39,299 nucleotides of DNA. It comes from Escherichia phage phiHAO2-2. The notes beneath the pieces are model-generated. The model was given only the letters and a program-made list of their open reading frames with translations. It was not told the origin of the DNA and did not search any database. Positions 20,780-21,954 of the stretch are shown here, in pieces (position 1 is the first letter of the stretch; the number at the start of each line of letters is the position of its first letter). The DNA lies in the sequence record PP079212.1. One strand, 5' to 3'. The position numbers and the translations under genes were made by a program.

Positions 20780-21823
20780 ATGGCAAACGTTCCGGGTCAG
20801 AAAATTGGTACAGACCAAGGTAAAGGAAAATCCAGTTCCGACGCTCTAGCGTTGTTCCTGAAGGTATTTGCTGGCGAAGTCCTGACCGCATTCACTCGCC
20901 GCTCTGTAACGGCTGACAAGCATATTGTCCGAACCATTCAGAACGGTAAGTCTGCTCAGTTCCCGGTCATGGGTCGCACCTCTGGTGTGTATCTGGCTCC
21001 GGGTGAGCGACTGTCCGATAAGCGTAAAGGTATCAAACATACCGAGAAAGTAATTACCATTGATGGTCTGCTGACTGCCGATGTGATGATTTTCGACATT
21101 GAAGACGCGATGAACCACTATGACGTGGCTGGCGAGTATTCCAACCAGTTGGGGGAAGCTCTGGCTATCGCTGCTGATGGTGCGGTTCTGGCTGAAATGG
21201 CTAACCTGTGTAACCTCCCAGCTGCATCCAACGAGAACATCGCTGGTCTTGGTACTGCTTCCGTACTGCAAGTTGGTAAGAAAGCTGACCTCGACACCCC
21301 GGCTAAACTGGGCGAAGCAATCATCGGTCAACTGACCATTGCTCGTGCGAAGCTGACCGCCAACTACGTTCCTGCTGGCGACCGTTACTTCTACACCACG
21401 CCGGACAACTACTCTGCAATCCTCGCGGCTCTGATGCCTAACGCTGCTAACTATGCTGCGCTGATTGACCCAGAGACTGGTAACATCCGTAACGTGATGG
21501 GCTTCGTTGTTGTTGAAGTTCCGCATCTGGTACAGGGTGGTGCTGGTGAGACCCGTGGTGAAGACGGTATCACTATCGCTTCAGGTCAGAAACACGCATT
21601 CCCGGCGACTACTACTGGCGACGTTAAAGTTGCTATTGACAACGTTGTGGGTCTGTTCTCTCACCGCTCTGCTGTGGGTACTGTTAAGCTGCGTGACTTG
21701 GCGCTGGAACGTGACCGCGACGTCGATGCTCAGGGTGACCTGATTGTTGGTAAGTACGCTATGGGTCACGGCGGTCTGCGTCCTGAAGCGGCTGGCGCAC
21801 TGGTTTTCAGCCCAGCGGTGTAA
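20780..21823 (+). CDS. Major capsid protein 10A
   Basis: 347 aa (T7 gp10A is 345 aa). Long identical stretches with T7 gp10A (KHTEKVITIDGLLTADV, DIEDAMNHYDV, ALMPNAANYAALIDPE, RSAVGTVKLRDLALER, KYAMGHGGLRPEAAG). RBS TAGGAGA. Confidence 0.97.
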   Translation: MANVPGQKIGTDQGKGKSSSDALALFLKVFAGEVLTAFTRRSVTADKHIVRTIQNGKSAQFPVMGRTSGVYLAPGERLSDKRKGIKHTEKVITIDGLLTADVMIFDIEDAMNHYDVAGEYSNQLGEALAIAADGAVLAEMANLCNLPAASNENIAGLGTASVLQVGKKADLDTPAKLGEAIIGQLTIARAKLTANYVPAGDRYFYTTPDNYSAILAALMPNAANYAALIDPETGNIRNVMGFVVVEVPHLVQGGAGETRGEDGITIASGQKHAFPATTTGDVKVAIDNVVGLFSHRSAVGTVKLRDLALERDRDVDAQGDLIVGKYAMGHGGLRPEAAGALVFSPAV

Positions 21824-21954
21824 GTACATTTAGCCAACCTAACATCGCTACAGTAGCGGCTGCACCTGAAGAGGAGACTCTAACTCCTCAACAGAAAGCT
21901 GCGCGTACTCGTGCTGCGAACAGGGCCGCTAAACTGGCTGAGTCCAACAACTAA
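20780..21954 (+). CDS. Minor capsid protein 10B, predicted -1 frameshift product
   Basis: Heptamer G GTT TTC at 21802-21808, five codons before the 10A stop. The -1 frame is open for 48 more codons to TAA at 21952-21954, just before the terminator. Same arrangement as T7 gene 10A/10B. Confidence 0.5.

Follow-up and report, generated by a model that had tools for sequence, protein, structure and literature searches.

A probable T7-type programmed −1 frameshift at gene 10 of Escherichia phage phiHAO2-2, predicted to yield a 391-residue minor capsid protein

In phage T7, gene 10 is decoded with a −1 ribosomal frameshift (Condron, Atkins & Gesteland 1991, as recounted in PMC5009743 and PMC1635266). 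The T7 site is named as G_GU UUC in a review (PMC5009743) as well as in PMC1635266, and about 10% of the product is the longer form, 10B (PMC1635266). When the bare T7 heptamer was moved into a reporter, it gave less than 1% shifting (PMC1635266), and a CCCC in the T7 terminator is reported to contribute to gene 10 frameshifting (PMC5009743). As for phage K1F, its g10b is described as the product of a −1 frameshift that adds 44 triplets, and phage with GFP fused to the end of g10b (g10b::gfp) are stable and fluorescent (PMC6277420). In Kvp1, mass spectrometry has proved that 10B is made at TTTTCA (PMC2579914). The nature of the added tail is not the same throughout, the Ig-like tail of T3 having been contrasted with the non-Ig tail of T7 (PMC5009743). 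The gene 10 frameshift is thus already known: T7 and K1F have been described as using it, and some relatives of the phage considered here have it annotated in their genome records.

The DNA that we analysed, hereafter the window, is the whole 39,299-nt record of Escherichia phage phiHAO2-2 (PP079212.1), a K1F-like Kayfunavirus (Autographiviridae/Studiervirinae). Over 1.5 kb around the capsid locus, its closest match is phiHAO1-1, with 99.7% identity, while many Kayfunavirus genomes show 93-97% identity over the same 1.5 kb. An earlier note on this DNA had proposed that gene 10 carries a programmed −1 frameshift producing 10B, a proposal that is strengthened by homology to T7 and K1F, by frame-specific selection and by a survey of related loci. 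From these lines of sequence evidence, we put at about 0.93 the probability that a T7-type programmed −1 frameshift operates at gene 10 of phiHAO2-2, yielding 10A together with a minor, 391-aa 10B.

Gene 10 and its candidate slip site

The local order is gene 9 (scaffold), a K1F-type promoter, gene 10, a terminator, a tiny ORF, and gene 11 at 22114. The promoter, a phi10-type phage RNA polymerase promoter upstream of gene 10 (ACTAAACTATCACTATAGGGAGA; positions 20655 to 20677, + strand), agrees with the K1F consensus, which was taken as quoted in the ASO2B annotation for the homologous place, and would drive gene 10. Eight copies of the promoter core ACTATCACTATAGG are found on the + strand (at 1825, 5358, 16835, 19656, 20660, 25067, 32344, and 38601), which fits a complete or near-complete T7-like genome. 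The tiny ORF between the terminator and gene 11 (22013 to 22102, + strand) encodes 29 hydrophobic residues (MFLIYTGLALFVLFWAYLLPSSPSSPYDH) and has a strong Shine-Dalgarno sequence, AAGGAGG, at 22002 to 22008. Pipis, with a note of one transmembrane domain, and Penshu1 have hypothetical proteins annotated at the homologous positions. The ORF is absent from K1F, a PHROG search with it gave no match, and it is the most variable part of the region (pairwise diversity of 0.25-0.30).

Gene 10A itself (20780 to 21823, + strand) encodes, in the 0 frame, a major capsid protein of 347 aa. This assignment comes from the ORF, from Pfam and PDB matches, and from the records of relatives, which annotate the homologue of 10A as major capsid protein. 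The 10A product matches the Pfam family Gp10A-like (PF21703; T7-family, HK97-fold) with an E of 4e-105, the T7 10A structures 2xvr and 3j7w with an E of 4e-146, and chain E of PDB entry 9vvq (347 aa) with an E of 5e-214, the last being a chain that we take to be from a related phage. The computed masses are 36.3 kDa for 10A and 40.9 kDa for 10B.

In the 0 frame, the 3′ end of 10A reads CTG GTT TTC AGC CCA GCG GTG TAA. It contains, at 21802 to 21808 (+ strand), the heptamer GGTTTTC in the register G GTT TTC (Val342-Phe343), with TTC as the fifth codon before the 10A stop, exactly as the earlier note had it. That note had further equated this heptamer with the slippery sequence of T7 gene 10, which is borne out by the T7 record, where sequence and register are identical at positions 23986 to 23992 (GTG GTT TTC AAA). 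By its sequence, its identity with T7 and K1F, and the survey described below, the heptamer is a putative tandem −1 slip site. When read from C21808, the −1 frame has 48 codons (QPSGVSTFSQPNIATVAAAPEEETLTPQQKAARTRAANRAAKLAESNN) before a TAA at 21952 to 21954, and a tail peptide that had been cited as an example proves exact to the letter. This 10B-specific C-terminal extension (21808 to 21954, + strand; 48 codons plus TAA), which is defined by translation and by T7 homology, overlaps the last 16 nt of 10A. The length of about 391 aa that had been predicted for 10B agrees with the arithmetic (343 + 48 = 391 aa). The TAA also adjoins a Tphi-type terminator, as claimed, since the 17-bp hairpin of the latter starts two bases past the stop.

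The possibilities for entering this frame are limited on both sides. Upstream, a TGA in the −1 frame at 21784 to 21786 (+ strand), seen in the frame translation AS*SGWRTGFQ..., sets a limit for shifting into the 10B frame. Between it and the 10A stop, a shift is possible over 12 codons only, from 21787 to 21823. This entry stretch holds a single slippery motif, and a search of it for other X XXY YYZ-like or A_AAG motifs found none. Moreover, no ATG, GTG, or TTG occurs from the TGA at 21784 to 21786 to the TAA at 21952 to 21954, and the ORF listing has no ORF called in the tail frame. Since the tail lacks a start codon and there is a TGA upstream, the 10B frame can be entered from gene 10 only.

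Decoding is predicted to proceed as follows. Most ribosomes would read 20780 to 21823 and release the 347-aa 10A. A minority would slip back by one nucleotide on G GUU UUC (21802 to 21808) through a tandem slip, in which the P-site tRNA-Val would re-pair from GUU to GGU and the A-site tRNA-Phe from UUC to UUU. The next codon to be read would then be CAG (21808 to 21810), and translation would continue in the −1 frame to the TAA at 21952 to 21954, just before the Tphi-type terminator. The resulting 10B would share residues 1-343 with 10A but carry a tail of 48 residues in place of the terminal SPAV of 10A, a net gain of 44 residues. The predicted slip junction is ...PEAAGALVF-QPSGVSTFSQPNIATVAAAPEEETLTPQQK, such that the peptide across the heptamer would read ...GALVF-QPSGV.... 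As in T7, 10B would be built into the capsid as a minor component. By analogy, its tail would be displayed on the capsid surface; where 10B would lie in the virion, and how efficiently the shift would occur, we infer by analogy as well.

Neither the heptamer nor the open frame is unusual when taken alone. GGTTTTC is found three times in the window against 4.0 expected, i.e., it is not enriched. Of the 28 long ORFs on the + strand, 12 have a −1 frame that continues for 43 codons or more beyond the stop, mostly because the next gene occupies that frame. The significance here comes from the position of the heptamer, from homology, and from the comparative data.

Conservation of the tail and of the slip codons

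The tail (EETLTPQQKAARTRAAN) is homologous to the T7 10B tail (EETLTPAQEAARTRAAN), the two sharing a common core, EETLTP.Q.AARTRAAN. A tblastn search with the tail gave matches in 80 phage records. Two PHROG families annotated as "head protein" (12582 and 20538, with 52 and 38 positions) match residues 364-388, while a Pfam search with the 48-aa tail gave no match and no Ig-domain.

When the window is compared with T7 in the −1 frame, pS is 0.87 (near saturation) and pN is 0.25, for a ratio of 0.28. The same alignment columns give pN/pS values of 1.76 and 2.02 in the other two frames; the alignment, being a protein alignment, is somewhat biased towards the −1 frame, yet the contrast is large. 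Against two other T7-like tails, pN/pS values are 0.49 (L016) and 0.55 (L039). As judged from these substitution patterns, the comparison shows protein-level purifying selection on the tail in the −1 frame only. Because K1F-type tails are 98% identical in DNA, selection is not measurable inside the genus, and the case rests on the comparison with T7-type tails; a crude count of sites within the genus met too few substitutions and was uninformative. At the nucleotide level, no extra constraint on the tail was found, its diversity (0.016-0.021) falling within the range of gene 10, which goes down to 0.008-0.011.

The 16-nt overlap with 10A has a pattern of its own. A Gly codon of the 10B frame is conserved there and varies at its wobble base only. 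This wobble position coincides with the second position of the last 10A codon (21818 to 21820), so that the variation falls on the last 10A residue; phages that are otherwise almost identical have V, A, E, M, or T there, which makes the residue hypervariable. In the overlap, to go by this pattern, selection is tracking the 10B frame.

We surveyed 78 capsid-gene loci from IMG/VR, which are not phylogenetically independent, and compared them at the point where 10A ends in ...GALVF.... In 29 of these loci, Val-Phe is encoded with a U-run: GGTTTTC in 25, CGTTTTC in two, and GGTTTTT in two. A protein-like −1 extension of 45-270 codons follows in 28 of the 29. For GGTTTTC alone, extensions of 45-94 codons are found at 24 of the 25 loci. 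In the 27 loci with GGTTTTC or CGTTTTC, Val is encoded by GTT, and all but one of them (26 of 27) have an extension. By contrast, the 26 loci that have neither a U-run (mostly GTC/GTA/GTG-TTC) nor A_AAG possess only junk −1 frames, which either stop early or read through the terminator. The other long-tail loci have a T3-like A_AAG site two codons downstream, and Big_2 domains. A synonymous codon choice that tracks the extension, across unrelated types of extension, is what would be predicted for a functional shift site.

At least four unrelated kinds of extension are found behind the U-run: the T7/K1F tail of 45-48 aa, a domain of 91-96 aa without Pfam match, Big_2, and one extension of 270 aa that combines Big_2 with an unassigned domain. 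That such different tails occur behind one shift site appears well supported by these sequences, and is in part anticipated by the literature (PMC5009743). In Kayfunavirus-like loci (L017, L019-L029, L078, L082, and L083), an extension of 91-94 aa (...TTFKALSTEG...RRTNSLYFKA...) comes just after GGTTTTC. This extension shows no relationship to the K1F/T7 tail, and a Pfam search gave no match above threshold. A 96-aa relative of this extension sits behind CGTTTTC in L032 and L033. Set beside the K1F/T7 tails, these extensions point to different tail modules placed behind one shift site in capsid genes that are 94-95% identical (10A). Two further loci (L047 and L061; IMG/VR 3300034349_000001 and 3300034127_000003) have GGTTTTT followed by a 270-codon −1 extension, composed of a Big_2 Ig-like domain (Pfam E of 1e-11) and about 180 aa without Pfam match. 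The latter part shows, by eye, motifs resembling those of GDSL/SGNH hydrolases, so that frameshifting may serve here to display an enzyme on the capsid.

One natural variant concerns the tail directly. Phage vB_EcoP_F (L015/L098, IMGVR_UViG_2974615076_000001) has a 1-nt deletion 14 nt past the heptamer, GTAAGC having become GTAGC, with the result that the 10B frame ends after 15 codons and the remaining conserved tail lies in another frame. The same deletion is present in vB_EcoP_FFK3. Either the 10B tail has been lost naturally, in which case the full tail would be dispensable in these phages, or the deletion is a sequencing error.

This deletion, which breaks the frame, would suit the view that the −1 frame is an inherited relic, conserved through close kinship, from which no significant 10B is made or used. 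With K1F-type tails so nearly identical in DNA, conservation within the genus indeed proves little, and T7 10B is dispensable for plaque formation. Kinship does not, however, account for the comparison with T7, in which nearly saturated pS goes with a low pN and protein is kept in the −1 frame only, nor for the way in which Val GTT goes with the extension (26 of 27 loci) while GTC, GTA, or GTG is used where there is none. The weak shifting of the heptamer alone, at less than 1% (PMC1635266), also counts for a relic, but the fluorescence of K1F g10b::gfp phage shows that the K1F 10B frame is translated (PMC6277420) and lends indirect support to two capsid species in K1F, such as T7 has in infected cells and virions. 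On balance, we consider it very unlikely that the −1 frame of phiHAO2-2 is a mere remnant, and favour programmed frameshifting at the heptamer.

Another way of reaching the same frame would be transcriptional slippage, with the phage RNA polymerase dropping one U on the run of four T and no ribosomal slip taking place. A short TTTT run is present at 21804 to 21807, but four T are far too few, since a polymerase slips productively only on runs of some 7-9 or more identical bases. Furthermore, the heptamer is kept in a fixed codon register, which is relevant to tRNA re-pairing and not to the polymerase. Although slippage of this type gives the same class of product in some phage and IS genes, a general topic treated in PMC5009743, the T7 event is classed there as ribosomal. 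Slippage by the polymerase is therefore hard to credit at this locus. The least credible view makes the tail a small gene in its own right, or has it entered by a shift elsewhere in the overlap: the matches to PHROG 12582 and 20538 suggest that some annotators have called a stand-alone ORF in other phages, but here neither the 48 codons nor the stretch between the TGA at 21784 to 21786 and the heptamer contains an ATG, GTG, or TTG, and the 12-codon entry stretch is without a second slippery motif. Programmed −1 frameshifting on G GTT TTC thus remains the reading that we adopt for gene 10 of phiHAO2-2.

Terminator and candidate stimulators

Since the heptamer alone is a weak shifter, a stimulator would be needed. 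Two candidates can be named, a hairpin 5 nt downstream of the heptamer and the CCCC of the terminator 152 nt downstream, which might act singly or together. The Tphi-type terminator (21957 to 21997, + strand), recognised by folding and by alignment with T7 Tphi, consists of a hairpin and a T-run and has its CCCC at 21961 to 21964. The hairpin (21957 to 21994) has 17 bp followed by the T-run, with a dG of −25.2 kcal/mol and a z of −4.3, and it aligns with T7 Tphi over AACCCCTTGGG...CTTGAGGGGTTTTTT. By analogy with the T7 element, its CCCC may have a role in shifting here.

The second candidate is a predicted stem-loop of 8 + 2 bp (21814 to 21849, + strand), which starts 5 nt past the heptamer. 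Its folding energy of −8.9 kcal/mol lies between that of most relatives (about −10) and that of K1F (−5.2). At 21819/21844, phiHAO2-2 has a U-A pair, whereas most relatives have C-G and two have U-G; in K1F the pair is broken. Covariation in the stem-loop does not exceed the shuffle control: it amounts to one compensatory pair, and 160 of 500 shuffles of the 15 distinct K1F-type sequences were as good; this weak signal is explained by the sequences being 98% identical. The 72 nt past the heptamer fold no better than shuffles (z of +0.25), and the tail region as a whole folds unusually well (z of −3.99). In an Rfam search of 20600 to 22200, we found no frameshift element and no credible family, the only matches being two sub-threshold sRNA matches over the terminator.

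It follows that a role for the local hairpin as the stimulator in K1F-type phages, for which the single compensatory pair is the evidence, is at most hinted at by the sequences. We regard as tentative, and on the doubtful side, the combined picture in which one shift site serves four kinds of tail and the stimulator of K1F-type phages is the local hairpin, not the long-range terminator element of T7.

Annotation and comparison with known systems

The value of these findings lies mainly in annotation, a joined 391-aa 10B CDS being the feature to add for the phiHAO2-2 genome. Such a joined CDS (1175 nt, corresponding to 391 aa) is present in the records of Penshu1 (QEG09807.1) and CR44b (CDM21567.1), and the record of EcoDS1 has a note on the slippery sequence. 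Many records, including those of phiHAO1-1, K1F RefSeq, and ASO2B, have 10A only and no 10B. Several sister GenBank records label 10A "minor capsid protein," which is an annotation error. The C terminus of 10B is a natural point of display and fusion in T7-family phages, used by T7Select, and the K1F g10b::gfp fusion was likewise built on it. The exact junction and stop therefore matter for engineering phiHAO2-2. No new biological question is raised, since the stimulator and the function of the tail pose the same questions as in T7.

Among the known systems, that of T3 and phiYeO3-12 differs in both slip site and tail. Their gene 10 frameshift uses a lysyl slip site (A_AAG / C CCA AAG), in contrast to the Phe U-run of phiHAO2-2, and their tail is an unrelated Big_2 Ig-like domain of 85-90 aa (Pfam E of 4e-15), whereas the tail here is short and has no Pfam or Ig match. 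A T3-type frameshift with an Ig-like extension was accordingly rejected as a candidate for phiHAO2-2, there being no A_AAG within 21787 to 21823.

In T7, heptamer and register are the same as in phiHAO2-2, the 10A stop follows within a few codons (GTG GTT TTC AAA GTG GAG TAA), and the homologous −1 tail likewise ends just before a homologous Tphi hairpin with AACCCCTTGGG. The two systems differ in detail. At 48 aa, the tail here is shorter than that of T7 (56 aa), from which it has diverged in its N-terminal half. The heptamer lies five codons ahead of the stop, counting TTC, whereas the distance is four codons in T7, and 152 nt separate it from the CCCC of the terminator, against 179 nt in T7. 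In addition, the GGGGG run that lies past the stop in T7 is absent from phiHAO2-2.

K1F, the type species of Kayfunavirus, has a genome that agrees with that of phiHAO2-2 at the level of the genus. It has the same heptamer in the same register (CTG GTT TTC AGC CCA GCG GAG TAA), and the 44 triplets reported to be added in its g10b agree with the 391 − 347 = 44 found here. Differences from K1F-type relatives are confined to point differences, such as Ile versus Val at tail residue 13, and the hairpin pair 21819/21844, which is U-A here, is C-G or A-G in these relatives. Tail identity is 46-47 of 48 residues in two K1F records and in Penshu1, and 41 of 48 in CR44b. In K1F, Penshu1, and CR44b, the 10B product is likewise 391 aa long, extending 44 codons beyond 10A.
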